Positions 1-44,377 of a stretch of DNA of 51,216 nucleotides are shown here, in pieces. The translations under genes were made by a program, and so were the position numbers. This DNA is from Candidatus Methanophagales archaeon (GTDB lineage: Archaea; Halobacteriota; Syntropharchaeia; Alkanophagales; Methanospirareceae). The stretch spans positions 1-51,216 of the forward strand of contig JANJFQ010000003.1 in NCBI GenBank assembly GCA_025435355.1, written 5' to 3'. Each line of letters opens with the position of its first letter. The first letter of the stretch is position 1. The notes beneath the pieces are model-generated. The model had not been told where the DNA came from. It saw only the letters and a list, made by a program, of their open reading frames with translations, and made no database searches.

Positions 1-1583
1 CTTTTGCAATCCAAGATAAACATGTAAAAAATGTGCATATTGGCTTACTGGAAAATGTCCCAGAACCACTGACTAATGATTTTGTGTTAAAACACAAAGC
101 ACAGATAGATGCAGGAGTGGAGAAACTAAAATGGTTCAACTCCAAACTATCTTCTTCTGGAAAAAAACCAGTGATGTTCGTAGTTGCAGATTATAACAAA
201 CACGCAGATGATGTAGGAAAATACCTTAAAAAGTATTTTCCAAACAGGGTGCTCGTTATCCATACTGATACAAAAGGAAATATAACAAAGAAGCATTTGC
301 CATATCTGAGAGAAGCAGCAAGGAATATTGATACAAACCAATACGAAGCGATAGTCAGTGTTATGATGCTCAAAGAGGGCTGGGATGTCAAGAATGTAGT
401 AGTTATAGTTCCACTTAGACCAGCAAAAGCACCTACTTTACCAGAACAAATTTTAGGAAGAGGTCTAAGAAGAATGGAACCATTTAATGAGGGTTGGCAA
501 GAAACTTTAGTTGTCGTGGACCATCCAAGATTTAGAGAATTATGGGATGCTGAAATTAGAAAAGGAGAATTGTATGCAAAAATCGAATCTGTTAAAGTCA
601 AGCCCAAAATACATAGCATTCGCGTGGACGGAAGCAAACTCGGATACGATTTTGAAATCCCAATGGTTGAAGGAGGGATAACGTCAAGAGTGCCAGAAAT
701 ATCTAAGCTTGATGTTGAGACATTGCCTTCTGGTGCCTTCAAAATATCAGAAATTGAGCCACCGAAGGTAATGTGGAGAGAAAAAGACCTTTTAACAAAA
801 CGGATTGTGGAAGAGAAAGAATTAGCATTTAGTTATGTTGATACCATCGAAGAATATTTATCCTATATAACAAAAGCCATCATAGCAAAATCCAAAACAC
901 CCTCTTATTTCTTTCCTGAACTTGTTCCAAAAGTTGAAGAGTATATCATCAAATTTTTATTTGAGGATGCTTTTGACATAAACAATAGAGAAGAAATTAA
1001 GAAATTGAATTTGCCACAGATAAGAAGAACAATTGTGGAATCATTTAATAAAGAAATACTCAAGCTTTCCACGAAAGAGGAAGAAACCTATGTTATAAGC
1101 CAGTATAAATTAAGCAACACGCCAGTTCTCCATACCTCAAAAAGTGAAAATATGCTGTATGAACCAAATAAGTGCATTTTCAATATCCTACCAGCAGATA
1201 GCTATCTTGAAATTGAGTTTATGAGATATTTAGATTCACAACCTGAAGTTTTGGCATTTACAAAAGTTTTAAGATATTGGATTCCCCTGCGCATAAGATA
1301 TTACGACCATTATGGATACTTACGGTACTATATCCCCGATTTTGTTGTTAAAACCGAAAATTGTTTTTATTTAATAGAAACCAAAAGGGAAGAGGACATA
1401 AATGTTAGATATAAGGACAAAGCTGCTACGGAATGGTGTAAATCCACTACAAAAGGAACAGGATTTACATGGATTTATATTAAAATAATGGCAGAAGATT
1501 TTAAAGAATATTCCACTCTTAAAATATCTCAACTTATTACAAATGTTGGCTACAGCCAATTTGCATTGGATAAAATTCATTAA
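1..1583 (+). CDS. Type III restriction-like endonuclease Res subunit (SF2 helicase C-terminal part plus PD-(D/E)XK nuclease); 5'-truncated by window edge
   Basis: MLKEGWDVKNV and EQILGRGLR helicase motifs V/VI; C-terminal YIPDFVVK...LIETK nuclease motif; frame open from window start. Confidence 0.85.
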   Translation, partial: FAIQDKHVKNVHIGLLENVPEPLTNDFVLKHKAQIDAGVEKLKWFNSKLSSSGKKPVMFVVADYNKHADDVGKYLKKYFPNRVLVIHTDTKGNITKKHLPYLREAARNIDTNQYEAIVSVMMLKEGWDVKNVVVIVPLRPAKAPTLPEQILGRGLRRMEPFNEGWQETLVVVDHPRFRELWDAEIRKGELYAKIESVKVKPKIHSIRVDGSKLGYDFEIPMVEGGITSRVPEISKLDVETLPSGAFKISEIEPPKVMWREKDLLTKRIVEEKELAFSYVDTIEEYLSYITKAIIAKSKTPSYFFPELVPKVEEYIIKFLFEDAFDINNREEIKKLNLPQIRRTIVESFNKEILKLSTKEEETYVISQYKLSNTPVLHTSKSENMLYEPNKCIFNILPADSYLEIEFMRYLDSQPEVLAFTKVLRYWIPLRIRYYDHYGYLRYYIPDFVVKTENCFYLIETKREEDINVRYKDKAATEWCKSTTKGTGFTWIYIKIMAEDFKEYSTLKISQLITNVGYSQFALDKIH

Positions 1584-12983: not shown

Positions 12984-14984
12984 TTATTTACCCCATGGCC
13001 ATCTGACACCAAGACCCTCCTTTGGGAATGCTGTTGTAACTCCCCTCCCTTTCTCGATTATCCCCATTTCATCAACTCCGTTATTAAAACCGTGATCTAT
13101 GGGTCTGAATATGATTTTAGTTACATCTTGAGGATCTGGAGTACCCTTTTCTAACCCAGCCTCGATCATTTCTTCGACTTCATCCCAATCCATTCCTTCA
13201 GGGAATAGAGAAGTACCCCGCTCTGGAGAGCCATCTATATGTTTAAACTGGATATGTTTCTTTCCAAAACCGGGTTTCCATACACCATCAACAAAATAAT
13301 CTTCCTTACCAACTTTTATGACTGTTGTATCACTTACAACTTCGGTTCCGGCTTTAACACTCCTACTTGGAGCTTTCAACATCCTAACTAGCTGTTCTTC
13401 CCCAGCAGTTATATCGATGGGATCAATCCCCGTCCCCCTCACATATACCGCCAACTTCTCGGGATTAACCTTATTCATGTCAATGACATTCCACTCCACA
13501 CCCTTCGATGTTATCTCAACAATTTCTTCCTTATACTGCTTCACCAACGTATTAACAAACCCTTCGCCATGCTTCTTAAATATCTTCGCTAATCCTTTCT
13601 GTGCATCATCACCCCATTCTTTCAATGCTTTTCTGCCAATCTCTGACTTTGCCATCCACTCTGCTGTATCATCGGACATCTCAGCCAAGTTTTTACCTGC
13701 TCTATCAGCTTTACCCTTCCCTAAACTTTCCAGAAGTCCTTTCCCAGTTTGCTTATCAACGTTCTTTAAAGCCTTATTCCACCCATTTAGAGCCGGTTGA
13801 CTTAATTCATCCCACCACGGGACGTAATGTATGATGCCCAATTTAAATCCAACATCATCAAACCATTTAACCGTCCAACTGACACCACCTTTAACATATT
13901 CTACGGTACCATTTGCCTTTGTTTTTATAACCCGTCCCGTCTCGCCAATATCATCCACAAATTTTAGAGCACGACCTTTCCCAACGACCATAGCCAGGCC
14001 GTGACCAACAAATCCAGCAGGTATAAATGGAGATACAGCATCGCCAACAAGCATCGCCTCCTCGAACTTACACCTATCCGCAGCGGGTCCAGCATTCTCG
14101 CGGATTTCAGCAACACAGTTCCTTGTGTCACCAACACAGCCTTTTATCGCATTTACACATTGCGGAACGCCAAAAGAATCCTCTTCCTGGAACACGCACT
14201 TGCAGAACTCTTCCGTGCTCCATGCAACTGAAGCAACGTCAATAACAGCCATCGCAACAGCCACAGGCGCTATTTCAGGTGTAAAATCGTCAATTCGTGA
14301 GAAATTGGAGCAGTCGCCTTTTGATTGCGCCACACGCGATTCACCGGGCAGTGTTGCAATGAAATTAACAACTTCTTTTGATTCGTCCACGGTTATATCC
14401 CGCGATTTCTGATAATCTCCTTCGTAATCCAGATTCGTTATCCTGTATCTTATGTCTATGTGGTGATTGCCGTATGGGACATCCTCGATGTATGCATACC
14501 CAAAAGGATTGGTCAATGCCCTTTCTTCCCCATCCACATACACATAAACGTTCGCTACTGGATAGCCATTGATATTATCCACGTTTACCTGAAGGTCGCC
14601 TCTATGCGTGTCGCAGTCACAACCACCGGAATCACAACCCGCCTCGCTAAAACAATACCCTTCTTCATAACAGTAGTAATGCTCATTGTCTATCTCACAG
14701 CCGCACCCACTAAGAGTACCGCTACATGAGGGAGTGCATGAGTTGGGATAGCCAGATGGATTACATTCACCACCAGCATGGAAATAACAGGTTACCGTGC
14801 TTGTTGATAAGGTTGTGTAATCAGGTGTACTATCAACAGAATCTGAATGTATGTTTATTGGACTTTCAGATGTTACAGTCTCGCCACCCGACACTATGCC
14901 GCCGAAGAGCTGCGAACCCAGTAGTAACGCTATAATAAAAATCCCTATAATCGTATCCATCGCTTTGCTTTTTTCGCCTTTCAA
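12984..14984 (-). CDS. Secreted polymorphic-toxin-like protein with C-terminal EndoU/BECR-like RNase domain
   Basis: Signal peptide, Cys-rich segment, PEGA/carboxypeptidase-regulatory-like beta sandwich, two hydrophobic helices, C-terminal GKKHIQFKH...SLFP..MDW.EV..MI...VTTAFP. Confidence 0.65.
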   Translation of the reverse strand: MKGEKSKAMDTIIGIFIIALLLGSQLFGGIVSGGETVTSESPINIHSDSVDSTPDYTTLSTSTVTCYFHAGGECNPSGYPNSCTPSCSGTLSGCGCEIDNEHYYCYEEGYCFSEAGCDSGGCDCDTHRGDLQVNVDNINGYPVANVYVYVDGEERALTNPFGYAYIEDVPYGNHHIDIRYRITNLDYEGDYQKSRDITVDESKEVVNFIATLPGESRVAQSKGDCSNFSRIDDFTPEIAPVAVAMAVIDVASVAWSTEEFCKCVFQEEDSFGVPQCVNAIKGCVGDTRNCVAEIRENAGPAADRCKFEEAMLVGDAVSPFIPAGFVGHGLAMVVGKGRALKFVDDIGETGRVIKTKANGTVEYVKGGVSWTVKWFDDVGFKLGIIHYVPWWDELSQPALNGWNKALKNVDKQTGKGLLESLGKGKADRAGKNLAEMSDDTAEWMAKSEIGRKALKEWGDDAQKGLAKIFKKHGEGFVNTLVKQYKEEIVEITSKGVEWNVIDMNKVNPEKLAVYVRGTGIDPIDITAGEEQLVRMLKAPSRSVKAGTEVVSDTTVIKVGKEDYFVDGVWKPGFGKKHIQFKHIDGSPERGTSLFPEGMDWDEVEEMIEAGLEKGTPDPQDVTKIIFRPIDHGFNNGVDEMGIIEKGRGVTTAFPKEGLGVRWPWGK

Positions 14985-17253: not shown

Positions 17254-17829
17254 ATGCCAAAAAGAGCTCCTGACCCCATTACCGAGGAAGAGCTAAACAA
17301 AATCTTGGATGCTGCTATCGTGAATGATAGAGACTATCTGATATTAAGGCTACTTGCAAGAACTGGCATCCGTATAGGCGAGCTTTACGGTGTCTATAAG
17401 TGCGAGCGCGGGGAATGGATATACGGGATACAGAAGAAAGACATTGACTTCCGCAACAAAAGGCTGTGGGTATATTCGTTGAAGCAGAAGAGATATGTAA
17501 GAAGAGAGGTCCTTGCTGACGATGCCACTATGGTGTTGTTGAAGAGATACACAGAAAAGATGAAGCCCGAGGATTATGTTTTCAGAAGCATCTCGTATAG
17601 ACAAATTCAGAGGCTGCCGAAGAAGTATGCCCTGCAAGCAGGTGTAGATAAAAACGTGTCATGCCATTCCCTTCGACACTTCTTTATCACGCATTCCTGG
17701 AGAAAAGGGATAGACATTGCCAGACTCCAATACCTCGCAGGCCATGCTGACTTGAAAACCACAATGATATACACGCATGTGACGACAGAGGATGTGGAGA
17801 AAAAATATCGTGAGATATACGAGGAATAG
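17254..17829 (+). mobile_element. Tyrosine recombinase/integrase, catalytic domain only (191 aa)
   Basis: TGIRIGEL (R), HSLRH (HxxR), LAGHAD...TMIY (H, Y) catalytic residues intact. Confidence 0.9.
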
Positions 17830-17917
17830 GTTGTTATAAGCTACCCGTTTGTTATGGTTAAAAATCGAAAAGCATTTATATATACTCTGGAATTTGTGAT
17901 TTAGAAATATAGGTTAA

Positions 17918-18187
17918 TCATTCACCAGAAGTCGCATATATTTCATAAGGCATTATCTTCTTGTTCGCCTTCTTCTTCCCTCTCAACTTATTTACGAGGT
18001 CGGCGGCTTTCTCCTTCTTCTTCCGCTCCTTCAACCTCCCCATTATGCTCGCCATCTCTTTCGCCTTTCCCTCACTGCCGTATTCCTTCTCCTCCTCCTT
18101 TACATACTCACCATCTACATCCTCTTCCACCGCTATTTCCTCTTCTTCCTCTTCCATTCCTTCAAAAACCATTACACCTACACTCAC
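17918..18187 (-). CDS. Pup/UBact-like intrinsically disordered protein modifier ending in -SGE
   Basis: 89 aa, highly charged, C-terminus EIYATSGE, strong RBS GGAGGTG, immediately downstream of the Dop-like gene. Confidence 0.8.
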   Translation of the reverse strand: MSVGVMVFEGMEEEEEEIAVEEDVDGEYVKEEEKEYGSEGKAKEMASIMGRLKERKKKEKAADLVNKLRGKKKANKKIMPYEIYATSGE

Positions 18188-18255
18188 TTTAACTCCACCT
18201 CCTTACACTTTTATTACTTCTTTTTCTTGATAAAACTTTCCTCTTTTACCGTAAA

Positions 18256-19815
18256 CTAAGAAATTATCTTCTCAGGATATAATCTTTTCGCTGCTGATAA
18301 AACTTCCGCGATTTCTCTCCCCTCTTTCATTTCCGCCCCCATCTCTTCCTTATTCAGTATAAACGGCTCGTCCAGTATTATTTTCGCTTCGTTAAGCACC
18401 ATCGTTGACCAGCTAACACTTCTCACGTGTGACCCGTACCCTTTCAACATCTCAACCTTGAAAAAGTCCCTCGTATGCTCAGGTGCATTATCCAATGCAT
18501 ATTTTACTCTATCGGATAAAGAAGACCAATCAACCTGCGGCAGTTCTTTCTTTGCAAATGCCAGCGACTCCTTCGGATTGAAAAGACAACTACCTTTTGT
18601 ACTCTCTTCTTCGTCCACAATGTAGTACAGCACGCTCTCATCCAGCAATGCATACTGGTTACAAATGCTTATTCCTTCAAAGGCGCTTTTTGGCTCATAA
18701 TTCACAAGCAGTGCCAGTTTCGTCACCCAGTCTATCCCATCCACATATTCTTCCACTCGCCGAGCTTCCAGCTTCTCTATCACTTCCTCTAAACTCCTTT
18801 TACCTATTTCATCCCACTTTCCTTCTTCTCCCATCTCTTCATACATCTTCTCTATTCCCTCGAGATAAAACCGGAGAATAGAAACGGCATCTGTCATCTC
18901 CTCGTTCTTCAACTTTATCTTCCACTCGCATTCCTGTGTATCCGCTGATATTTTCTTGAATGCCCTCACCGGGTCGTCTATCTCCGGCGCATCGTCCAGG
19001 AAGCCCAATTCAAATGCACAAATTACCATCGCTTGCGCGACATCACGCAAGAAAATTGCGTATTCGGAACGAAGTGCCTCATAATGTATATCGTGCAGTC
19101 GCCAGTATTGACGTGCCGCATGAGGCTGGTCTCTCGTGTTCAAGATGCCTCTACCCGAGGTAGTGGCAAGAGAAGACTTCTGAACAACAAACATCGCTCT
19201 TGGCGAAATAACAAACTTCACCCCTTCTTTACCAATGGTGTCCCCGGAAACAACATCCCCGGACCCAGTGAACAATATTCTCGTGACGACCCAGGGTATT
19301 AGCGCTTTTTCTACACGACTCCAATCCTTGCACGCCTCTCTTTTTGTTATTATATTCCCGTGCGTAGAATAGGTCTTGGTTTTTACTTTTTTACCTTTGC
19401 CATCGCTACTACGATTGGCGACATTATTTTTATGAACAACCACTTTCTTCTTTAAAGCCAGACTTGCCTCCCTTGACCCCACAAAAGCATATATCTCTGA
19501 TGCTTTATCGTATGCCACGGCATCAAAGGGATTATTGTAAGAGGGTGTCGCTATTTCAAGATGCCCCATATCGTTATAAATCCGACAGCCGTTATCACCA
19601 TACGAAGACGTTATCCTCGATTCATGCGCTTCTTGAGATACCTCCGTAATTAGGTCCCACATTACATCCCTTGAAAATCCTCTCCTTTTTAAACCTTGAA
19701 TCGCGGCGTTAGCGAGCAGAGAAGGATTTGAAATCGCTTTTGCACTCACGGGATATTCCTGCTCTATTCCTCTTATCTTATTTTCTGTTCCTCCTTCCTT
19801 CTTTCTCGCACTCAT
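18256..19815 (-). CDS. dop: Dop-like depupylase/deamidase (Pup-ligase family)
   Basis: GIEQEY, NP.L, WD, NGCRIYND.GH.E, P.DAV..DKA, KNNV...DGKG, TGSG, L.TT..RGILNTRDQPHA, RLH resemble actinobacterial Dop. Confidence 0.8.
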   Translation of the reverse strand: MSARKKEGGTENKIRGIEQEYPVSAKAISNPSLLANAAIQGLKRRGFSRDVMWDLITEVSQEAHESRITSSYGDNGCRIYNDMGHLEIATPSYNNPFDAVAYDKASEIYAFVGSREASLALKKKVVVHKNNVANRSSDGKGKKVKTKTYSTHGNIITKREACKDWSRVEKALIPWVVTRILFTGSGDVVSGDTIGKEGVKFVISPRAMFVVQKSSLATTSGRGILNTRDQPHAARQYWRLHDIHYEALRSEYAIFLRDVAQAMVICAFELGFLDDAPEIDDPVRAFKKISADTQECEWKIKLKNEEMTDAVSILRFYLEGIEKMYEEMGEEGKWDEIGKRSLEEVIEKLEARRVEEYVDGIDWVTKLALLVNYEPKSAFEGISICNQYALLDESVLYYIVDEEESTKGSCLFNPKESLAFAKKELPQVDWSSLSDRVKYALDNAPEHTRDFFKVEMLKGYGSHVRSVSWSTMVLNEAKIILDEPFILNKEEMGAEMKEGREIAEVLSAAKRLYPEKIIS

Positions 19816-19973
19816 TAGCCTTTGTGGTAATTTTATTTTTATAAATTTTTTATCTTCGCATTCTATACCTTCCTAATTCAACAATAGTTACTGCATTCTC
19901 TAACTCTTTTACATCAAGGAGAGTTAGGAATTCTCTTAAAACTTTATCAACGCCCCAAAAACTTCATCTACCA

Positions 19974-21737
19974 TTATATCTCTTCTTCCTTTTCATTCCC
20001 CTTCTTCTCCTCTCTCCTTATCTCCTCTGCCTTCTCCTTTATACTCCCCCCATCCCACCCATCCAGTTCATCAAATCTATAAGTTTTGTTATTGGAATAC
20101 AGCAAATAGTCTAAATACGGATTCCTGACGATTCTGTTTCTTATTTCTCTGCTTATCTCCTCCTCCCAGCCCCTTATGTCCCCCTCCTCTGCAAGCAATC
20201 GCACGAGAACCTGCCTTGTTCCTTCCCCGCTCCTCCTCTCTCGCAAAAACACCACCACTGCACTTGGCATCCTCGCAAGTTCCGGATACCTCTCAAATAG
20301 CCTCGAATATTCTTCCCCAGTCGGCCTACTCACATCTATCCTTACCTTTGGCTCCCTGTTTATCGTTATCTTATTCCAGCTCAGGACAGCATTCTCGAAT
20401 TCTGACGCAAGTCTTACCCTTAGCTCGGCTCTCGAATCCTTTGGCGGGAACAATAACGCTTCCCCTATCTCCTCTTCCGTTAGTATTCGCTCCACCCCCA
20501 CCCTATCCACCACTTGCTCGTATAAGTCATAATCACAGAGATTGGCGAAATCAAACGATGCCGCTATCTCTTTCTCCACACGCTCATCCATCATGTATAT
20601 GCTCCGGTAATCAAACTTCCCCTTTGACGTGCATTTATATTCAAAATCATCTATCTCATTCTTTATCACCCATAACTTCATCACCCATTCTAAACGCCGC
20701 ACCACGTATGGGTCTTCAAGCAATCCCTGCTCGAATTTGTCACAAATCTTCTTGAACGTATCCAAAACGTATTTGTCCCAGTAAGATGTCTCTCGTTCCT
20801 CAAACAACTCCTCTATCACCGTAAGATAATAACAATTAAGATAATCAATCGCGGACTGAGTCCTCCCATTCATTAACTTTATCCGCCAATCACCTTCGGT
20901 ATTCACCGAAATATCTTTGAATGTTTGAAGCGGATTCCAGATGTCCTCTACATGCGAGATATTCCCTGTTTCTATTGCATCTATTACATACGATGTGAGG
21001 GCATTATTGAGCAGCCGTGTAACCTCAGAGCGAACACCCTCACCCGATGTAACATGGACACGATATTTATCCTTTGTACTCAACGGCTCGTCTCGTGTAG
21101 ATAATATAGGCCATTGAGAAGGCGACTCCGTGAGAACACGCTTCGAAACCATCGCTTTCGGCGAAATCACATATCTTATCCCTTCTTTTTCCGCTATAAA
21201 CCCGCCAGCGCCAAAGAATATCTTCCGAAGCACTAAAAACGGTATGAGCAAATTCTCTTTACCCGCAAATTTCTTCCTCTCCACCATGTATGATTCGTGC
21301 GTGCCCCGGCTATACCTCTTGTCTATCTCCACATTTGCTTTCCAGCATTGGATGCGTGCAGGGTTATTCCCTCTCTTCTTCAACTTTTCCCTGTATCTTT
21401 CATTTGCTTTCTCCACGCCTATCTGCATGTACAACTCCGACGCCTTATCGTATTTCAGCACCTCAAAAGCATTTCGGCATTCAGGCGTGGCTATCTCTAA
21501 GTGACCTCCAGTGCAGATGTAAATCCGAGAGCCATTTCTCAAAAAGCCATCGTTCCTCCTCCGTAACTTCGAGCATATCGCATCCGCTCCATCAAAAAAA
21601 GTATAATTCTCAAGTGCATGAATCACTTCATCCACATGATAAAATCTCGCATACCTGTACAAGCCAGGCGATTCTGAACTTATGCCCACTCTAAATTCGT
21701 GCTCTAACCCCTGCCATTTGTTCAAATCCTCCCCCAT
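19974..21737 (-). CDS. pafA: PafA-like Pup ligase homolog (divergent active site)
   Basis: GLEHEF, FLRNGSRIY..GGH.E.ATPEC, GTHESY, LIPFLV.R...GAG, STRDEP, YRVHV; ATG at 21737 is 1 nt past the ATPase stop. Confidence 0.75.
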   Translation of the reverse strand: MGEDLNKWQGLEHEFRVGISSESPGLYRYARFYHVDEVIHALENYTFFDGADAICSKLRRRNDGFLRNGSRIYICTGGHLEIATPECRNAFEVLKYDKASELYMQIGVEKANERYREKLKKRGNNPARIQCWKANVEIDKRYSRGTHESYMVERKKFAGKENLLIPFLVLRKIFFGAGGFIAEKEGIRYVISPKAMVSKRVLTESPSQWPILSTRDEPLSTKDKYRVHVTSGEGVRSEVTRLLNNALTSYVIDAIETGNISHVEDIWNPLQTFKDISVNTEGDWRIKLMNGRTQSAIDYLNCYYLTVIEELFEERETSYWDKYVLDTFKKICDKFEQGLLEDPYVVRRLEWVMKLWVIKNEIDDFEYKCTSKGKFDYRSIYMMDERVEKEIAASFDFANLCDYDLYEQVVDRVGVERILTEEEIGEALLFPPKDSRAELRVRLASEFENAVLSWNKITINREPKVRIDVSRPTGEEYSRLFERYPELARMPSAVVVFLRERRSGEGTRQVLVRLLAEEGDIRGWEEEISREIRNRIVRNPYLDYLLYSNNKTYRFDELDGWDGGSIKEKAEEIRREEKKGNEKEEEI

Positions 21738-21738
21738 T

Positions 21739-23373
21739 TTAAAAATGCATTCCCGTTTCTTCTTCCGGCATTCCCTCATACCCTGATGCTAATATCTCCT
21801 CCGCTCTTCTCTGCACAAACTTGTCAAATCCCTCTTTTAGGTGTCCCATGCTCACCCCTATATCCTCTATGCGTTTATACTTCTTCTGCAAATCATTCGT
21901 CTTGCTTCCCGCATCTAATATCACTTCAATTCTTTCATTATCCCACATTCTCTTCATATCCCCACTGCTGATATCTCCTTTTTTCAACATTAGCAATGTC
22001 CTCTCCTCCAATGCCTTATCCCTCGCATAGTTGAATATCTGGGCTATAAACCGCCCGGTTATCGTATCCGCCCTCCTTATCCGCCCTATTTCCGTCTCAA
22101 CATAAGTATCACTGTACATATAGCCGACCATCTCCCTAACCAGATACGCCCTCGCCTCTTCTTCTCCACCCCTTTCCTTTACCAGGTAGCAGTCAATAGG
22201 AATATTTTTAGCATATAAGGAGGCAATGGAATATGCAGCTTCCTTATCAGGTGCTGGAACCTCAATTATCTTGTCAAATCTCGCCCTGAATGCGGAATCT
22301 ATAAGATACAACCTGTTCGTCGCTCCTATCACCGTAAGGTGTGGATGCAGAGCATGGAAACCCTCCAACAGGTCCAGTAGTTGCCCGGTAACTCTCTCCG
22401 GCGCTCCCGAGGAACCTGTGTACATGCCCCTTTCCTGTGCTAACGCATCTATCTCGTCAAAGAAGATTACACCATAGTCATTTTCCCCTTCCTCTAATTT
22501 AGCGTTCGCAGTCTTGAACACCATTCTCACATTCTTCTCTGATTCGCCAAGCCACATGCTGAAAAGCTCTCCTGCTCCTACCTTCATAAATTCACAATTC
22601 GGTAATGCGGATGCCAACGCCTTTGCACACATCGTTTTCCCGCATCCTGGCGAACCATACAGAAGTATCTTTCTCGAACCTTCTCCATATTTTGTGTAAT
22701 CGTCAGGATTTATCATCGGAAGAACAATGCTCTTTATTAATTCCTGTTTTACCTCCTTCAAGCCCCCAATGTCATTAAAACTCACCTCAGGGCTCTTCGT
22801 GACTTCATAGCGGGAGAATTCCTTTGTCTTGTAACTCTTCTTTATGTCAAACGTGCCGGGGAGAAGTCCTACCTTCATCCCCTCTTTTATCTCTTCCTTC
22901 TCTTCTTCTCTTAGCTTTTTATATAATCTACCACGTCCTTTTCCCGTGGATATTTCAACTATCCATTCATCTTCAGTGTCGTCCTTCCTCAACTCCTCTA
23001 TCTCCCCCACCTCTAAATCCACCATCCGGTCATATACCTTCGTGATTCCTATGGTAAATCCACTGGGGTTATTCCTATCCGGGATGCGCCCTATGAAGAC
23101 ATATTTCCCTTCTTGTAGCTCCCTTATTTCTTCCTCAGTAAGCGTTCCGTATGGCAAAGCCTTTAACGCACCATTCAAATTCACGATGGCGCCCTCATCA
23201 GTCTTTTCCACTACGAATCCACAGTCTAAAGGCGGTGACCTCGCTTTTGACACAAGTTTCTCCAAATCAGCTTTATACGCTTCTGTCTCCTCGTATTTCC
23301 TCCTCAACCGCCGGTAGTCACTCTCTAACCGTTCATATTCGTATCTTGGAATATAGTCCACCCTTTCTCCCAT
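21739..23373 (-). CDS. arc: ARC/Mpa-like proteasome-associated AAA+ ATPase
   Basis: N-terminal coiled coil ending SPP, long (probably double OB) interdomain, DIGGL, GSPGCGKT, IFFDEID, GATNR, ITG..IA.I, C-terminal TGMHF; heads the pafA-dop-pup operon. Confidence 0.8.
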   Translation of the reverse strand: MGERVDYIPRYEYERLESDYRRLRRKYEETEAYKADLEKLVSKARSPPLDCGFVVEKTDEGAIVNLNGALKALPYGTLTEEEIRELQEGKYVFIGRIPDRNNPSGFTIGITKVYDRMVDLEVGEIEELRKDDTEDEWIVEISTGKGRGRLYKKLREEEKEEIKEGMKVGLLPGTFDIKKSYKTKEFSRYEVTKSPEVSFNDIGGLKEVKQELIKSIVLPMINPDDYTKYGEGSRKILLYGSPGCGKTMCAKALASALPNCEFMKVGAGELFSMWLGESEKNVRMVFKTANAKLEEGENDYGVIFFDEIDALAQERGMYTGSSGAPERVTGQLLDLLEGFHALHPHLTVIGATNRLYLIDSAFRARFDKIIEVPAPDKEAAYSIASLYAKNIPIDCYLVKERGGEEEARAYLVREMVGYMYSDTYVETEIGRIRRADTITGRFIAQIFNYARDKALEERTLLMLKKGDISSGDMKRMWDNERIEVILDAGSKTNDLQKKYKRIEDIGVSMGHLKEGFDKFVQRRAEEILASGYEGMPEEETGMHF

Positions 23374-35878: not shown

Positions 35879-36058
35879 CAGTAGAGATGTAAAGTGTGTT
35901 TTGAGCACATGTTTTTTCTATATGACTCTGACAGGTGTTATTTCTGCTTAATCTTATTTATAATGCCTTTGATGAATCATTATGCGAAACTCTTTGCAGT
36001 TGCAGGCTTCGTACTTAAGTACGGGGTATATGTGACTTTAAAAGGTGGTGAATTAAAG

Positions 36059-37897
36059 ATGAAAAAAAGCAAGAAGGTTTTGGAGTTTGTCGCAGTTTTA
36101 GCGATAGCGATGATTACGAGTGGATTTGCTGCAATGGTTTCTGCTGATAATACATTTGAAAGCGATGTAAACTCTTCATCAGCCATAATTCAGGATAATA
36201 ATCATCCGTTTATGCAAGAGAATGGCTGGCTAAATCAAGTTTCTCTGAAAGATGATGCATATCATTATAAATATTCATTAGATGGAATAAACGATCATCT
36301 GTACACTGAGTGGTGGTATTTCAATGTATACAACATGGACAGGCAGTTCATGGTATCTTATTTACTTCTCGATCCCGGGAATCTGACCGGTATAGGAGTT
36401 GCAGAAGTGCTTGCAATTGTATATGATGGCATGCCATTGATCGGATTTACATCAACATCGGTGTCTGATTTCACAGCAGATTATGAGAAGCCAAATGTGA
36501 CGATTGGCTCAAATTCACTGCTTGCACTGAATGATACAACATTTGTGATCAATGGCAGTTGCTATGATATTTATTCACATATTCCGATCCAGTGGAACCT
36601 CACATATACCATGGACGTGGGATCATGGTTTGGAGCATCTGCACCCATGCATGTTGGACACATACCAGATGACTGGATGCAGTGGCTGAGTTATATGACC
36701 GGCGCAAACGTGCAGGGCACCATTACCATTGGCGGAATGACCTATGATATGTCAGGTAGAGGGTATCATGATCATAACTGGGGTGAATGGCTCTCTTATG
36801 ACCCGCAGTGGAACTGGGCGCAGGTTAGTGTGCCAGAAGAAAATGCCAGCCTGATCCTCGGCGATGTGATTGCACCGCCAGTGCGCAACACCGTGATGGC
36901 GTTCAAATACAATGGAACAACGATAACATTCAATGATATCGATCTGACATACACAGGCTATGGATTTGATTCGGTCACATCGAAATTATATCCCGATGAA
37001 TACCACGTGACAGGGAACAGTGATGAATACAGCATAAATGTCACGATTAGCGTGATCAAGAACGTTCCTCTAGTAAGGCCATTCCCGGGAGCACTGCCAG
37101 ATTATGTGCTATTCGAACAGGTTTCGGATTACAATATAACGTTGTTTAAGGATGAAGAAAGGGTTTATAGCCTCAATCAGAGCGGTTTCTCAGAGTATAC
37201 AACGCACAAGGTACATACAATATATGGCAGGGTACTGAATGCAGAGGGTGCATCGGTCACCGTTACCGATGCGAGAACGAGCATGTCAAAACAGAGCACA
37301 GTGGCATCTGGATATTATAGCGTGGATGGTGATTTTCTGGATTATTTGATCGATGATACCACACCGTGGGTGGCTGATGGCGATATTCTGCTCATAGAGG
37401 CGGTTAAAAATCAAAATAGAGGTAACACTACCCTGATTGTGAATATGAGCATGGATAAGCAACAGGCTGCCGATATAACCCTCCAGCCAATGCCCGCCAG
37501 AGTATTCGACACAGGTGCTGGCACTTATCCCAGCATAATGGGAACACACCATGGCACAATCAAACCCTACCACGATGTCAACATCAGTCTGATGTTCACC
37601 TATCCATGCACCGGAACAGGTGGGCATACTGAATATGCTGAAATCCGGAATGCAACCTGGAACGCAACTGCAACTTGGAGAGGATATATAGGCGATTGGC
37701 ATAATATCTCTTTCGATAAGACAGTTGTTCTATTAGCGAACGAAACATACAACTACACCATCCGCACAAGCTCTTATCCGCAAATAATACATAAAAAGGA
37801 ATTTAATGCAACAGGAGGAAGGATAACTTGCTCAGAGTTCATAGATGCAAATGGAAAGAGATATGATAATTGGATCCCTGCGATTAGATTGGAGTAA
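36059..37897 (+). CDS. Secreted CrtC/AttH-like (tocopherol cyclase/lipocalin fold) protein with about 125-aa C-terminal domain
   Basis: Signal peptide MKKSKK...VSA, EWWYF, GYHDHNWG, W.W; C-terminal FDTG.GTYPSI.GTH.G...NWIPAIRLE. Confidence 0.7.
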   Translation: MKKSKKVLEFVAVLAIAMITSGFAAMVSADNTFESDVNSSSAIIQDNNHPFMQENGWLNQVSLKDDAYHYKYSLDGINDHLYTEWWYFNVYNMDRQFMVSYLLLDPGNLTGIGVAEVLAIVYDGMPLIGFTSTSVSDFTADYEKPNVTIGSNSLLALNDTTFVINGSCYDIYSHIPIQWNLTYTMDVGSWFGASAPMHVGHIPDDWMQWLSYMTGANVQGTITIGGMTYDMSGRGYHDHNWGEWLSYDPQWNWAQVSVPEENASLILGDVIAPPVRNTVMAFKYNGTTITFNDIDLTYTGYGFDSVTSKLYPDEYHVTGNSDEYSINVTISVIKNVPLVRPFPGALPDYVLFEQVSDYNITLFKDEERVYSLNQSGFSEYTTHKVHTIYGRVLNAEGASVTVTDARTSMSKQSTVASGYYSVDGDFLDYLIDDTTPWVADGDILLIEAVKNQNRGNTTLIVNMSMDKQQAADITLQPMPARVFDTGAGTYPSIMGTHHGTIKPYHDVNISLMFTYPCTGTGGHTEYAEIRNATWNATATWRGYIGDWHNISFDKTVVLLANETYNYTIRTSSYPQIIHKKEFNATGGRITCSEFIDANGKRYDNWIPAIRLE

Positions 37898-40500: not shown

Positions 40501-42096
40501 TCAGGTTGTAAATCGCTTGTAAATTCTCGTTATTTTATCAGGAAGTTTTACAACATCATCTATCACAACCCATCTGCTATTGGCATACATTCGTGGCAAA
40601 TACTCAGCAGCTTTACGGTCAACAGTAATACAAAACGACTTGATACCATATCTTTGTGCTTCCTTTAATGCCATTCTCGTATCTTCAATGGCGTAATTTC
40701 CATAATAATCCTGGTCTAATGGCTTACCATCACTCAATAGAATAAGCATTTTTGTCTTTTCTTCTCTTCTTCTTAATTTAGTTGTGGTGTGCCGGATTGC
40801 AGGAGCAATTCTCGTAGTTTGTTGATTCCTCATTGCTGAAATTTTGCGTTGCACACGCGGGTCATAAGAGTCATCAAAACCTTTAATTTTATAAAAAACC
40901 ACATTATCTCTTCCATACCCGGAGAATCCGTAAATAGCAAAAGCATCGCCTAATTCTTCCAATGCTTCAGACATTAATATCAATGCTTCTTTTTCACACG
41001 TTATTGTTGAGCCGCCCGTACTACCACTCATGTCAACGAGAAATGCTACTGCTATATCCCTAATTCTTTTTTTAGTTCGTACATAGTTTCTTTCAGAAGG
41101 TGAGAGTCTTAGTCTCTTATCAATAAAATATTGAACCGCTGAATCCAGGTCAATATCATCTCCATCAAATTGACCCCTTAATTTTACTAAACCCTCTGGT
41201 CTGAGCATTTGGAATTCTCGCCTGATGCTCTTTATCACTCCTGCATGCTTCTGAATTGTGTCAAGATAGAATTCATCTGAACCACCCGCTAAAATTCGTT
41301 CTCTAATCCTCGTCCAATTTAATCTATAATCTTTAATGTCACTACCCCATTCATGATATAAATAAGTATCCTGCTCGCTTTGAAGTTCATTTTCAGCTCT
41401 AATTAACGTTTCAAGGTCTCTTAAATAATCTTTCACCTTGTTTGGCTCAAGAGCATCAATTCTTGACTCGACGTCTTTGGGTTTGATTCCTTTTTCTTTG
41501 AACAATACTCTTAACAGTTCCCTTACTGCATCTTCTGAAGTGTAATTATCTTTTTTATCATCGTTTAAAGGACTTTTGTCTGGCTCGCTATTTAGTTTCT
41601 CACTAATTTTTCGTGCTGCTCTTCCAAAATTGCCTATATTTTGATTGACCCGAGATTGGTCTAAAGGTGCTGAAAAAGGATTCATCGGTAGATAGGGCTC
41701 TTGAAAATTGTCAGCTATCAAAAAATATAATTCAACAGTAACCCTTGCTGTTTCGTGGACATCTGCATCCGGAGAAGATAAAGTTCGGGTTATTGATAAA
41801 GCTTGAGCAAGAGTTTGCAGAAAATTTTCCGGAACTTGTTCTTTTGTTCTTCCGGCAGTTAACCGCTGCGCTATAATCTCTACTGCTCTTTGTTTATCAT
41901 TAGCTAATTCATCAAGAAAAGGCCTTTTAGAAACCATGTAAACGTTCATTTCTGCTATTTGTTCACCAAGAGCAGGATATTCTGCCTGCAGCCGTGAATT
42001 GATTCTATGATCTTCAAGTATGGTTATGAGATCCTTCGCTAACGCAGGCTCAGGAAAGAGTTCATAAAATTTTTCTATGTCGCTAATGCCGGTCAT
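40501..42096 (-). CDS. NorD/CbbO-like VWA protein (C-terminal half)
   Basis: Y.EW......YR..W, DGDDIDLD, MIDAS VDMSGS, TR...AIRH, LSDGKP.D, YAIEDTR.A. Confidence 0.9.
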   Translation of the reverse strand: MTGISDIEKFYELFPEPALAKDLITILEDHRINSRLQAEYPALGEQIAEMNVYMVSKRPFLDELANDKQRAVEIIAQRLTAGRTKEQVPENFLQTLAQALSITRTLSSPDADVHETARVTVELYFLIADNFQEPYLPMNPFSAPLDQSRVNQNIGNFGRAARKISEKLNSEPDKSPLNDDKKDNYTSEDAVRELLRVLFKEKGIKPKDVESRIDALEPNKVKDYLRDLETLIRAENELQSEQDTYLYHEWGSDIKDYRLNWTRIRERILAGGSDEFYLDTIQKHAGVIKSIRREFQMLRPEGLVKLRGQFDGDDIDLDSAVQYFIDKRLRLSPSERNYVRTKKRIRDIAVAFLVDMSGSTGGSTITCEKEALILMSEALEELGDAFAIYGFSGYGRDNVVFYKIKGFDDSYDPRVQRKISAMRNQQTTRIAPAIRHTTTKLRRREEKTKMLILLSDGKPLDQDYYGNYAIEDTRMALKEAQRYGIKSFCITVDRKAAEYLPRMYANSRWVVIDDVVKLPDKITRIYKRFTT

Positions 42097-42781: not shown

Positions 42782-44377
42782 TCATTTAATACCTTCACGC
42801 TCACCATACTTCGCCTTTATTTTATCAGCGACATCCTGAACTCTCCTCAGCTCAAAATCAAAACTGCCATATTCCAAATGAGCTTCTTCATGTGTCGCCA
42901 AAACTTTGTACATAATGAAATTTTTAGCTTCTTCTTTGAAATCTTTAACTCTTCCCGGAAGAAAGATTCGCTCACCGTCGGTTGTGGCTCCCTGTGCTTC
43001 CACAATCTCGATTCTGTAACCTAATAATGCATTCAGATAATGTAACAAAACAGGTTTTACGCGCTTCAGCTCAAGACCATCTGTGATAGAATCAAAAAAA
43101 TCTGCATATTCAGAAGACTCGCCTTTCACAAAAGACGTTGCTTTCTCTTCCCCTTCCATCTTTGCTATTTCTGAAGCCTGGTGAGCTACCTTCTCCAAAC
43201 CTTCATAATCCGCTCTACCGATGAGGTCTGGACTCTCCTCAAGCAAACTAACCGCAGTTCGCACGCTATACCTGGCAACTCGACTACTAAGTCCATAAAC
43301 ATCCTTAACTAACTCTTTATCTCCATACCTCAACAATCTATCAATGAGTGCCGGACTCAGCCCAAGCAACCTGACAGCAGTTCTCCAATTATAATCCCTG
43401 GCGACCTGACTACAAAAACCATAAACAGTTGTAACTAATTCTTTATCCCCATATCCCAGCAATCTATCAATGAGTGCTGGACACTCATCAAGCAACTTAG
43501 CGGCAATAAATCTATCATCTTTGTCGACCTGAGTACAAAGACCGGCAACCTCCTCTAAAACATCATATCCAACTTTATCTATGAGTGCTGGACTCATCTC
43601 AAGCAACCGGGCAGCAACAAAACTATCTTCCTGAGCGACCTGAGTACAAAGACCGGCAACCTCCTCTAAAACATCATATCCAACTTTATCTATGAGTGCT
43701 GGACTCAGCCCAAGCAACCTAACCGCAGTTCTCCCACTATAGTTAGCAACCTGACTACTAAGTCTTGCAATCTTCTCTAAACCTTCATATCCTACTCTAT
43801 CTATGAGTGCTGGGCTCATCTCGAGCAATCTAGCAGCAATAAATCTACGATCGTTTGGGACCTGAGTACAAAGACTGGCAATCTTCTCTAAACCTTCATA
43901 GCCTACTCTATCAACGAGATCTGGACATATCCCAAGCAACTTAGCAGCGACAAAACTATCTTCCTGGACTACCAGAGTACAAAGACCGGCAATCTTCTCT
44001 AAACCTTCATAGCCTACTCTATCTATGAGTATTAGACTCATCTCAAGCAACCGGGCAGCAGTTCCTCCACTATACCTGGCGACCGGACTACAAAGACCAT
44101 AAACATTAAGAACTAATTCTTTATCGCCATAGTTTAGCAATCTATCTATGAGCTCAGGGCTCATCTCAAGCAAACTAACCGCAGTTCGCACACTATGATC
44201 TTTGGCGATCTGGCTACAAAGACCAACAACCTTCTCTAAACCTTCATATCCAATTCTGTCGAGCAAAGGATATAATTCGCCAACTAATTTCTCAAGAACT
44301 TCACCTTCGTAATACTCATTAAGTAGTTTCCTTATTTTTCGCACTCCAAAAGCCCTCTTGATAGAAATCCATGCCAT
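42782..44377 (-). CDS. Tandem helical-repeat protein fused to NorD/CbbO-type N-terminal segment with HExxH
   Basis: About 10 repeats of 37-42 aa, then TDGERIFLP...YKVLATHEEAHLEYGSF. Confidence 0.8.
   Translation of the reverse strand: MAWISIKRAFGVRKIRKLLNEYYEGEVLEKLVGELYPLLDRIGYEGLEKVVGLCSQIAKDHSVRTAVSLLEMSPELIDRLLNYGDKELVLNVYGLCSPVARYSGGTAARLLEMSLILIDRVGYEGLEKIAGLCTLVVQEDSFVAAKLLGICPDLVDRVGYEGLEKIASLCTQVPNDRRFIAARLLEMSPALIDRVGYEGLEKIARLSSQVANYSGRTAVRLLGLSPALIDKVGYDVLEEVAGLCTQVAQEDSFVAARLLEMSPALIDKVGYDVLEEVAGLCTQVDKDDRFIAAKLLDECPALIDRLLGYGDKELVTTVYGFCSQVARDYNWRTAVRLLGLSPALIDRLLRYGDKELVKDVYGLSSRVARYSVRTAVSLLEESPDLIGRADYEGLEKVAHQASEIAKMEGEEKATSFVKGESSEYADFFDSITDGLELKRVKPVLLHYLNALLGYRIEIVEAQGATTDGERIFLPGRVKDFKEEAKNFIMYKVLATHEEAHLEYGSFDFELRRVQDVADKIKAKYGEREGIK
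43160..44266 (-). repeat. Intragenic tandem repeat array, 111-126 bp units (9 full + 1 partial)
   Basis: About 70 bp identical at 43526-43596 and 43637-43707 (111-bp period); protein unit LIDRVGYEGLEKIAGLCTQV.....AARLLEMSPA. Confidence 0.9.

Follow-up and report, generated by a model that had tools for sequence, protein, structure and literature searches.

A conserved four-gene cassette in ANME-1 archaea resembles the tool-kit of Pup-type protein tagging

This analysis concerns a four-gene cassette in a Candidatus Methanophagales archaeon (assembly GCA_025435355.1), carried by contig JANJFQ010000003.1, which was analysed over its whole length of 51,216 nucleotides and is called the window here. 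Four minus-strand genes in the same orientation fill positions 17918-23373 of the window, per the list of open reading frames (ORFs), in the order ATPase, PafA-like, Dop-like and a small ORF ending in Gly-Glu, just as the original prediction had described. With two members of the Pup_ligase family (PF03136), an Mpa-like ATPase and a small protein ending in G-E, all in a host of the ANME-1 type (ANME, anaerobic methanotrophic archaea), the locus does amount to a Pup/UBact-like tool-kit in an archaeal genome. We refer to the two Pup_ligase proteins as paralogue A (PafA-like) and paralogue B (Dop-like), and to the product of the small ORF as the candidate modifier. The features of the cassette, with the evidence behind each, are as follows.

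21739-23373, minus strand: gene for an Mpa/ARC-like AAA+ ATPase, 544 aa (PF00004, TIGR03689 alignment and Foldseek)
19974-21737, minus strand: gene for paralogue A, a PafA-like Pup_ligase protein, 587 aa (PF03136, conserved start)
18256-19815, minus strand: gene for paralogue B, a Dop-like Pup_ligase protein, 519 aa (PF03136)
17918-18187, minus strand: gene for the candidate modifier, 89 aa, GTG start, ending PYEIYATSGE (ORF list and conservation)
18196-18202, minus strand: Shine-Dalgarno-like GGAGGTG, 8 nt upstream of the GTG start of the small ORF (read from the sequence)
19816-19973, minus strand: spacer of 158 nt between paralogues A and B (read from the sequence)
19837-19846, minus strand: A/T-rich TATA-like stretch inside that spacer (read from the sequence)

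Translation of the small ORF would initiate with the help of the GGAGGTG motif. An internal promoter driving paralogue B together with the small ORF may lie in the 158-nt spacer. The window was compared with 20 loci fetched from relatives, and the order ATPase, PafA-like, Dop-like is kept in all 21. In 18 of these loci the small ORF comes right after the Dop-like gene, and the remaining three genomes carry it at another place.

The ATPase matches the Pfam family PF00004 (E 7.2e-34), and the only NCBIfam model that aligns to it over its full length is TIGR03689 (pup_AAA; residues 33-456 against model positions 30-456 of 512), at a score of 151.8 bits that stays below the equivalog cut-off of 504.75; models of the PAN subfamily reach 159-172 bits, and do so just over the AAA part. 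An AlphaFold2 (AF2) model of the ATPase, to be read as a rough guide only given a mean predicted local distance difference test (pLDDT) value of 62.9, has a long N-terminal helix (residues 10-44), a beta-rich OB-like region (52-170), an AAA module (about 205-400) and a helical C-terminal part, so that the predicted fold follows the Mpa/ARC architecture of a coiled coil, OB and one AAA module. When this model was searched against the PDB with Foldseek, ranks 1-10 and 14 were all Mycobacterium tuberculosis Mpa (508-525 aligned columns, E 1.6e-19 to 4.9e-17), above Rpt subunits and Cdc48. The Walker A, Walker B and aromatic pore-loop motifs are intact in all 19 ATPase sequences compared.

The start of paralogue A bears on how the first two genes are joined. 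The ORF list gives this gene as 19974-21779 (601 aa), but the ATG at 21737, which yields 587 aa, is conserved in the PafA-like genes of 20 of 20 relatives, while the upstream ATG at 21779 is not. The 41-nt overlap of the ATPase and PafA-like genes, which the original prediction had called translationally coupled, appears because this non-conserved upstream ATG was taken as the start. The conserved ATG lies one base past the ATPase stop codon TAA (21741-21739); the genes are therefore tightly packed and coupling is still plausible, although the overlap itself falls away. Metatranscriptome contigs of two runs (X1 and X3) carry insertions of 1-6 nt at window positions 21733-21735, between the ATPase stop and the PafA-like start, so the length of the junction differs among strains while both genes remain adjacent. 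Open frames of 1130-1871 aa in relatives were considered as ATPase-ligase fusions and rejected, as stop codons separate the genes.

Both paralogues are clear members of the Pup_ligase family. Paralogue A matches PF03136 with 205.3 bits (E 2.3e-60, model positions 66-439 of 441) and paralogue B with 220.5 bits (E 5.3e-65, model positions 1-440 of 441), against a cut-off of 25, and the family-level search proposed with the original prediction thus came out in its favour. The narrower models are another matter: against the PafA model TIGR03686 (cut-off 551.3) paralogue A reaches 166.1 bits and paralogue B 147.7, and against the Dop model TIGR03688 (cut-off 492.3) they reach 170.4 and 192.4, respectively. 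The best PDB matches of paralogue B, per phmmer, are the Dop structures 4b0r and 5lrt (1.4e-34). All Dop proteins, and no PafA, are described in an excerpt of PMC8599861 as carrying a Dop-loop of 40-65 conserved residues before strand beta2. The phmmer alignments of both paralogues to Dop begin only past the region of this loop, and the stretch from the E-x-E strand to the NGxRxY strand is of similar length in the two paralogues, at about 50 residues.

Active-site residues were compared in an alignment of 148 rows, built from the best 150 of 2609 matches (E<=0.001) in a profile search of 1.84 billion representatives. Cys75 of paralogue A aligns without a gap on an Asp of Corynebacterium glutamicum PafA (4b0t), a position held by Asn in the PafA-Pup chain 4bjr; the loop reads IYICTGGHLE in paralogue A and LYLDVGSHPE in PafA. 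This Asp, in the loop of the beta-sheet cradle, is the proposed catalytic base and possibly the nucleophile in Dop, according to an excerpt of PMC3511204. Cys occupies the position in the PafA-like sequences of 20 of 20 relatives, and the 11 clade-A rows of the alignment have Cys (4), His (4) or Asp (3), whereas the Asp is kept in 112 of 112 bacterial-type rows. The three-residue spacing from the Asp position to the His of H-x-E in paralogue A is that of PafA, with which it aligns gaplessly (4b0t/4bjr), while a one-residue gap is needed against Dop; the conserved E-x-E, H-x-E, H-E, R-D-E and R-x-H positions are retained in the alignment. In paralogue B, Asp82 falls on the catalytic Asp of Dop (D94 of Acidothermus cellulolyticus Dop) with Dop-type spacing, and this Asp is kept in 21 of 21 Dop-like sequences of relatives and in 22 of 22 clade-B rows. 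Two other acidic positions have changed in paralogue B. Alignment columns 478 and 582, which hold Glu in 98% and 95% of the 112 bacterial-type rows and also in clade A, hold S/T/A/L/V and G/S/Y/H/A/V/F, respectively, in all 22 clade-B rows. In the locus of one relative (G010, locus L026, 1886-3849, minus strand), the Dop-like gene is split over two frames (443 and 239 aa), by a frameshift or an assembly error.

These residue patterns bear on a reading in which paralogue B both ligates and removes the tag, and paralogue A is a non-catalytic adaptor or regulator that couples modifier or substrate to the ATPase through its extension. About 115 aa at the C terminus of paralogue A do form a conserved extension with invariant columns (without a Pfam match or a usable ESM Atlas match), its gene begins a single nucleotide past the ATPase stop, and 8 of 11 clade-A rows carry another residue in place of the catalytic Asp, against none of the 22 clade-B rows and none of the 112 bacterial-type rows. 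However, paralogue A keeps nearly all other active-site positions and is more conserved than paralogue B (mean column identity 80% and 71%, respectively), which would be unusual for a dead enzyme; the two conserved Glu are lost in clade B and not in clade A; Cys and His could both act as base or nucleophile; and the Bathyarchaeia, discussed below, have a paralogue A without the extension and without the ATPase. We regard an adaptor role for paralogue A as unlikely, if worth keeping in view. An AF2 model of paralogue A alone (from an 11-row alignment) was unusable, with a mean pLDDT of 36.6.

Phylogenetic trees were made from the 148-row alignment with FastTree (145 rows, three aberrant rows dropped) and with IQ-TREE (60 hand-picked rows, LG+G4, no mixture model), and the bacterial anchors were labelled by NCBIfam score (P0307, 584.9 bits, as PafA; P0185, P0216 and P0241, 508-564 bits, as Dop). 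In both trees, the two archaeal paralogues fall into separate clades, each with full support and outside bacterial PafA and Dop, and the joint A+B clade is separated from all bacterial-type PafA and Dop with a support of 99. The comparison with PafA and Dop that had been suggested for the two genes therefore places them in the same superfamily, though outside the bacterial PafA and Dop clades. Forcing paralogue A together with bacterial PafA costs 41.5 log-likelihood units, and this topology is not rejected by the approximately unbiased (AU) test (p-AU 0.0905). An independent duplication giving rise to archaeal A and B is a possible reading of these trees. Named members of the archaeal clades come from Bathyarchaeia, Methanomethylicia/Verstraetearchaeota, Thermoproteota and, as a fragment, one member of the Nitrososphaerales. 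One bacterial-type row, P0328 (406 aa), joins the first 87 positions of the bacterial 20S alpha model to a PafA part; it is a run-on of the gene call or a fusion where prcA meets pafA.

The distribution of PF03136 within the host's phylum follows the family closely. All 24 other family members sampled have it, as do both genomes from the sister family of the order, as compared with 0 of 14 additional genomes of the class or phylum. When the phylum was sampled evenly a second time, the result was 23 of 23 in the family and 0 of 177 elsewhere. Among 14 control genomes, only Corynebacterium glutamicum had a match. In some genomes of the ANME-1 family, another contig carries a third, separate PF03136 match of about 506-532 aa; these matches lie at G024:C14:2216-3400, G010:C1:196025-197314 and G012:C56:4260-5336 (genome, contig and positions).

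The small protein matched no Pfam family and no Pup or UBact-type NCBIfam model at E<=10 (the NCBIfam library probably includes a model of UBact); its sole NCBIfam match at that threshold is to the HscB model, at E 0.12. Its 76 matching database clusters likewise carry no Pfam family and, where a name is given, are called 'hypothetical protein', except for one 'ribosomal protein L4' and one MGnify code, and its best ESM Atlas match (0.79, in a eukaryotic cluster) gave no lead. The gene was nevertheless found in 21 of 21 genomes checked. Among the 18 linked loci, 16 of the small ORFs end in TSGE and two in TAGE. Over the 20 loci with the exact terminal motif, all of the last 40 codons vary at the DNA level while 20 of the encoded amino acids never change; among the final 12 residues, 10 are fixed. 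We take the small ORF to be a real gene because of this synonymous-type conservation and the Shine-Dalgarno-like motif upstream. The conservation of the Gly-Glu terminus, which had been named as a point on which the prediction could fail, was confirmed in 30 aligned sequences (the window copy and 29 of the 76 database clusters), of which 24 end in SGE, five in AGE and one in SGQ, that is, 29 in Glu and one in Gln. A terminal Glu or Gln after Gly, encoded beside Pup_ligase genes, is what a Pup/UBact-type modifier would be expected to have. Pup has the same pair of Glu and Gln, and Dop deamidates the Gln, per an excerpt of PMC3511204. The N-terminal half of the candidate modifier is acidic (isoelectric point, pI, 4.05) and variable, while the last 47 residues, with a pI of 10.12, are basic and hardly vary. 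A tryptic remnant of the modifier on a lysine would, by computation, be 12 residues long and add 1354.61 Da. In one of the relatives with an unlinked modifier gene (G018), a 271-aa ORF occupies its usual place (L033, 576-1391, plus strand), and the modifier gene is on another contig (L105), beside an ORF resembling ribose-phosphate pyrophosphokinase.

To bring the modifier and an enzyme together in one model, residues 1-470 of paralogue A, the only partner tried, and residues 43-89 of the modifier were submitted to complex prediction, both as alignments. The resulting model scored 0.85, compared with 0.01 for the best of three controls; in a benchmark, this score was reached by 58 of 80 solved complexes and by two of 110 mismatched pairs. 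The runs share at least 60% of contacts, and the pLDDT of the partner is at least 76. The C-terminal half of the modifier is predicted to lie in the PafA-like groove, where residues 57-86 contact residues 102-109 and 388-429 of paralogue A, as well as residues 16-20 (the E-x-E strand) and 77-79 (in the loop beside Cys75). PafA-Pup and Dop-Pup complexes have already been solved, and part of the score may therefore come from a likeness learned by the prediction model. The modelled binding would suit an adaptor as well, since paralogue A would still have to hold the modifier in that role.

Metatranscriptome contigs that are 90-99% alike to the window cover the ATPase, PafA-like and Dop-like genes (three runs of one study), and one contig spans the ATPase/PafA-like junction; we would like to note that DNA can occur in such libraries and that these contigs come from relatives. 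No RNA contig in the three runs covers window positions 17800-18181, over the small ORF, which weighs neither for nor against its expression. The missing coverage would nonetheless fit a reading in which the two enzymes are ligases joining carboxylates to amines on small molecules or peptides, like relatives of glutamine synthetase and glutamate-cysteine ligase, with the small ORF an unrelated neighbour and no tagging at all. So would the distance of both enzymes from characterised PafA and Dop, in separate clades, and a modifier that is unlike Pup and unlinked in three of 21 genomes. We hold this to be very improbable. Under it, one would have to explain a terminal G-E/Q with extreme conservation confined to the C-terminal part of the small ORF, an unrelated small ORF ending in G-E/Q at the same position in Bathyarchaeia, a complex model that is confident against its controls, and an Mpa-like unfoldase in the cassette.

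The original prediction had named a chimeric contig with bacterial DNA as a further way in which it could fail. A chimera, or bacterial contamination of the metagenome-assembled genome (MAG), would have in its favour that the MAG consists of 227 contigs, is 81.8% complete with 4.1% contamination, and that Pup_ligase is typical of bacteria. L32e is a ribosomal protein of archaea and eukaryotes, and the cassette is bordered by a gene for it (PF01655) and an integrase on one side and by a PhoU-domain gene and SRP54 on the other, per Pfam. G+C content is even across the region (0.43-0.45), the same cassette occurs in 24 of 24 and 2 of 2 related genomes, and the enzymes are not nested in bacterial clades. 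Additionally, 17 of 20 loci have a divergent ORF beside the ATPase gene, and the end of this ORF is similar to that of the PhoU-domain gene in the window (by eye, from the ORF ends). The closest named database matches (60-90% identity) are labelled ANME-1 cluster archaeon, Methanophagales, Methanophagaceae and Candidatus Alkanophaga; a few closest matches labelled differently are probably binning errors. Given the flanks, the G+C content, the relatives and the named matches, we consider chimerism and contamination excluded for practical purposes.

The prediction that the cassette comes without its own 20S genes was borne out: the genome has four PF00227 (20S) matches, on contigs C133, C159 and C60, and none on the cassette contig. 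The host also encodes a PAN that scores above its model's cut-off (588 bits), away from the cassette contig, a gene with two AAA modules on contig C171, two ThiF-family matches and two ThiS/MoaD-family matches. The host thus carries the cassette on top of what archaea usually have, namely 20S alpha and beta subunits and PAN.

Taking this evidence together, we think it rather probable that the cassette encodes an archaeal relative of the Pup-type pathway of tagging and has been passed on vertically within ANME-1/Methanophagales and the sister family. The 89-aa protein would be a largely unstructured modifier. Its basic C-terminal half would fold as it enters the groove of an enzyme of the Pup_ligase family, placing its terminal Glu at the ATP/Mg site. 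The side-chain carboxylate of this Glu would be phosphorylated and then linked to a target lysine as a glutamyl isopeptide. Paralogue A is the more likely ligase, with Cys75 (His in Bathyarchaeia) in place of the catalytic Asp, because of its PafA-type loop spacing, its retained acidic residues and its position directly behind the ATPase gene. Paralogue B, which keeps the Asp and has Dop-type spacing, is for these reasons the more likely deconjugase, and might also be a deamidase for the rare variants ending in Gln. Both assignments are less certain than the mechanism as such. With its N-terminal coiled coil, the Mpa-like ATPase would bind the tag of modified proteins and then unfold them, either feeding them to the native archaeal 20S or acting without it.

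A bolder version, which we think quite improbable, makes Cys75 a nucleophile: the phosphorylated Glu of the tag would pass to a Cys75 thioester and then to the lysine, a chemistry like that of E1/E2 enzymes on a glutamine-synthetase fold. The archaeal Pup-ligase branch may then be as old as the bacterial one, or its source.

Several points weigh against the Pup-type reading itself. Both paralogues, at 148-192 bits, lie far under the PafA and Dop equivalog cut-offs, phmmer against the PDB places both nearer to Dop (4b0r) than to PafA (4b0t/4bjr), and the A and B clades are sisters in the 60-row tree, with a value of 95 in the Shimodaira-Hasegawa-like approximate likelihood ratio test (SH-aLRT), though weakly so in the 145-row tree, a grouping that argues against simple orthology to PafA and Dop. 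Paralogue A is without the catalytic Asp that is universal in the bacterial-type rows, and two conserved Glu are missing from clade B; with the low scores, this means that either enzyme could be inactive or have another activity. The division of roles between A and B is based solely on loop spacing and residue patterns, and conjugation itself is inferred. The modifier has no likeness to the Pup or UBact models that these searches could detect, comparison with the tiny ORFs of Bathyarchaeia gave an hhalign probability of 0.25% (no detectable homology), and the three unlinked modifier genes, on another contig or elsewhere, stand apart from the cassette even though they encode the same C-terminus. 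The 20S genes are absent from the neighbourhood. Finally, the ATPase ends in TGMHF or TGMHY (TGMH[FY]) in 21 of 21 loci, with His as the penultimate residue. The HbYX rule, as given in an excerpt of PMC3493965, calls for a hydrophobic or small residue third from the end and Tyr or Phe in the penultimate place, and the tail GMHF departs from it because His stands there instead. The tail of Mpa carries a conserved GxYx motif (PMC6466877, in excerpt), where the ANME-1 ATPase has GMHF. Since this is not a canonical docking motif, the 20S is no more than a possible partner of the ATPase.

For the same reasons, we do not retain the description of a complete bacterial-type cassette that had been grafted in. 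The enzymes score below the cut-offs and form archaeal clades of their own, with Cys for Asp in one and two Glu lost in the other; the small protein matches no Pup model; and the ATPase tail is neither HbYX nor GxYx. What distinguishes the cassette is its own modifier, a ligase-like paralogue with Cys for Asp, a Dop-like paralogue with a trimmed acidic site and an Mpa-like ATPase without the canonical docking tail.

ANME-1 archaea are the main anaerobic methane oxidisers of marine sediments, and an unfoldase, two enzymes and a tag are fixed in every sampled genome of the ANME-1 family. No description of these archaeal Pup-ligase enzymes was found in the literature searched on ANME-1 and Bathyarchaeia. 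The words 'Pup', 'proteasom' and 'ubiquitin' do not occur in the main texts of the ANME genome papers PMC9012536 and PMC9894754, whose supplementary gene tables may list the genes, and the UBact-like locus that the original prediction had mentioned for ANME-1 could not be traced in the literature searched. Automatic database names do exist, namely 'proteasome accessory factor PafA2 family protein' and, once, 'Pup--protein ligase [ANME-1 cluster archaeon GoMg2]'. Reviews, in the excerpts available (PMC3511204, PMC3493965 and PMC12288473), treat Pup-type tagging as a bacterial invention and SAMPs as its archaeal counterpart; such tagging probably exists in archaea too, in a form not yet described. 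Were conjugation confirmed, it would be a second, chemically different route of protein tagging in archaea and would bring a new tag family, a natural Asp-to-Cys/His variant for the mechanism of PafA and Dop, a way to test the origin of pupylation and of its link to the proteasome, and a concrete mass to search for in existing ANME metaproteomes.

Some observations concern other parts of the window. The integrase gene at the border of the cassette encodes a tyrosine recombinase of 191 aa (PF00589, 7.6e-27; 17254-17829, plus strand) between L32e and the cassette end; relatives carry other ORFs at its place, and it may mark a local insertion or rearrangement beside the modifier gene. Long ORFs without a Pfam family at the thresholds used lie at 12984-14984 (minus strand, 666 aa), 35894-37897 (plus strand, 667 aa), 42782-44377 (minus strand, 531 aa) and 33-1583 (plus strand, 516 aa). 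Another ORF of 531 aa, at 40501-42096 beside one of these long ORFs, has a VWA domain.

Among known or annotated systems, we first compared the cassette with those of Bathyarchaeia, Methanomethylicia and other Thermoproteota, which have the same order of A, B and a tiny ORF ending in G-E/Q and whose A and B belong to the two clades that also hold the ANME-1 genes. For these two-gene cassettes, automatic annotation was the only description found. The tiny ORFs of Bathyarchaeia are about 40 aa long and end in VVAPPGE (three) or VVAPPGQ (one). Their paralogue A has His in place of the catalytic Asp, where that of ANME-1 has Cys, and at 457 aa it is without the C-terminal extension found in ANME-1. 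No Mpa-like ATPase was found in three Bathyarchaeia-type genomes, where only AAA-module matches (profile positions 190-395) appeared. Pup_ligase is patchily distributed in the phylum of the Bathyarchaeia, with PF03136 in 11 of 301 sampled genomes.

The actinobacterial Pup system (Mpa/ARC, PafA, Dop, Pup and PrcBA) likewise combines an ATPase and two PF03136 enzymes with a small charged protein ending in G-E, and the predicted binding of the C-terminal half of the tag in the groove, reaching the active-site loop, would be a further likeness. The ANME-1 enzymes nevertheless stand outside both the PafA and the Dop clades and far under the equivalog cut-offs. The ANME-1 order is ATPase, A, B and tag, and the locus has neither of the genes prcB and prcA that a Pup-proteasome locus would be expected to contain. 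The tag ends in SGE and is basic where it is predicted to bind, whereas Pup, ending in GGE or GGQ, differs. The hosts of the Pup system are bacterial, and that of the ANME-1 cassette is an archaeon with its own PAN and 20S.

UBact loci, reported from Gram-negative bacterial phyla by Lehmann and colleagues in 2017, share with the ANME-1 locus a Pup-like tool-kit outside Actinobacteria and a small modifier ending in G-E/Q; our own scan of contigs used two peptide patterns of the archaeal Dop-like clade and covered archaeal-type loci. The terminal motif of UBact, R-[TS]-G-E, resembles the T-S-G-E at the end of the ANME-1 modifier. It contains an Arg at a place where the ANME-1 modifier, ending in A-T-S-G-E, has none, and UBact loci are reported to include genes for proteasome subunits, which the ANME-1 locus does not.

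Closer in one respect are the 'cluster III' loci of the Corynebacterium type, which also hold a tagging tool-kit and ATPase without 20S genes in the locus, as described in the excerpt of PMC3511204, and this likeness makes a proteasome-independent role possible for the ANME-1 cassette. Those loci encode canonical PafA, Dop and Pup in bacteria without a proteasome, in contrast to the ANME-1 host with 20S and PAN elsewhere in its genome. Lastly, archaeal sampylation (SAMP/UbaA) resembles the proposed pathway in that small proteins tag lysines in archaea, and the ThiF- and ThiS/MoaD-family genes of the host belong to this comparison, but its chemistry and folds are unrelated: SAMPs are beta-grasp tags, adenylated at a C-terminal Gly by an E1-like enzyme, whereas the ANME-1 tag would be joined through the side chain of its terminal Glu by a ligase of the glutamine-synthetase fold.

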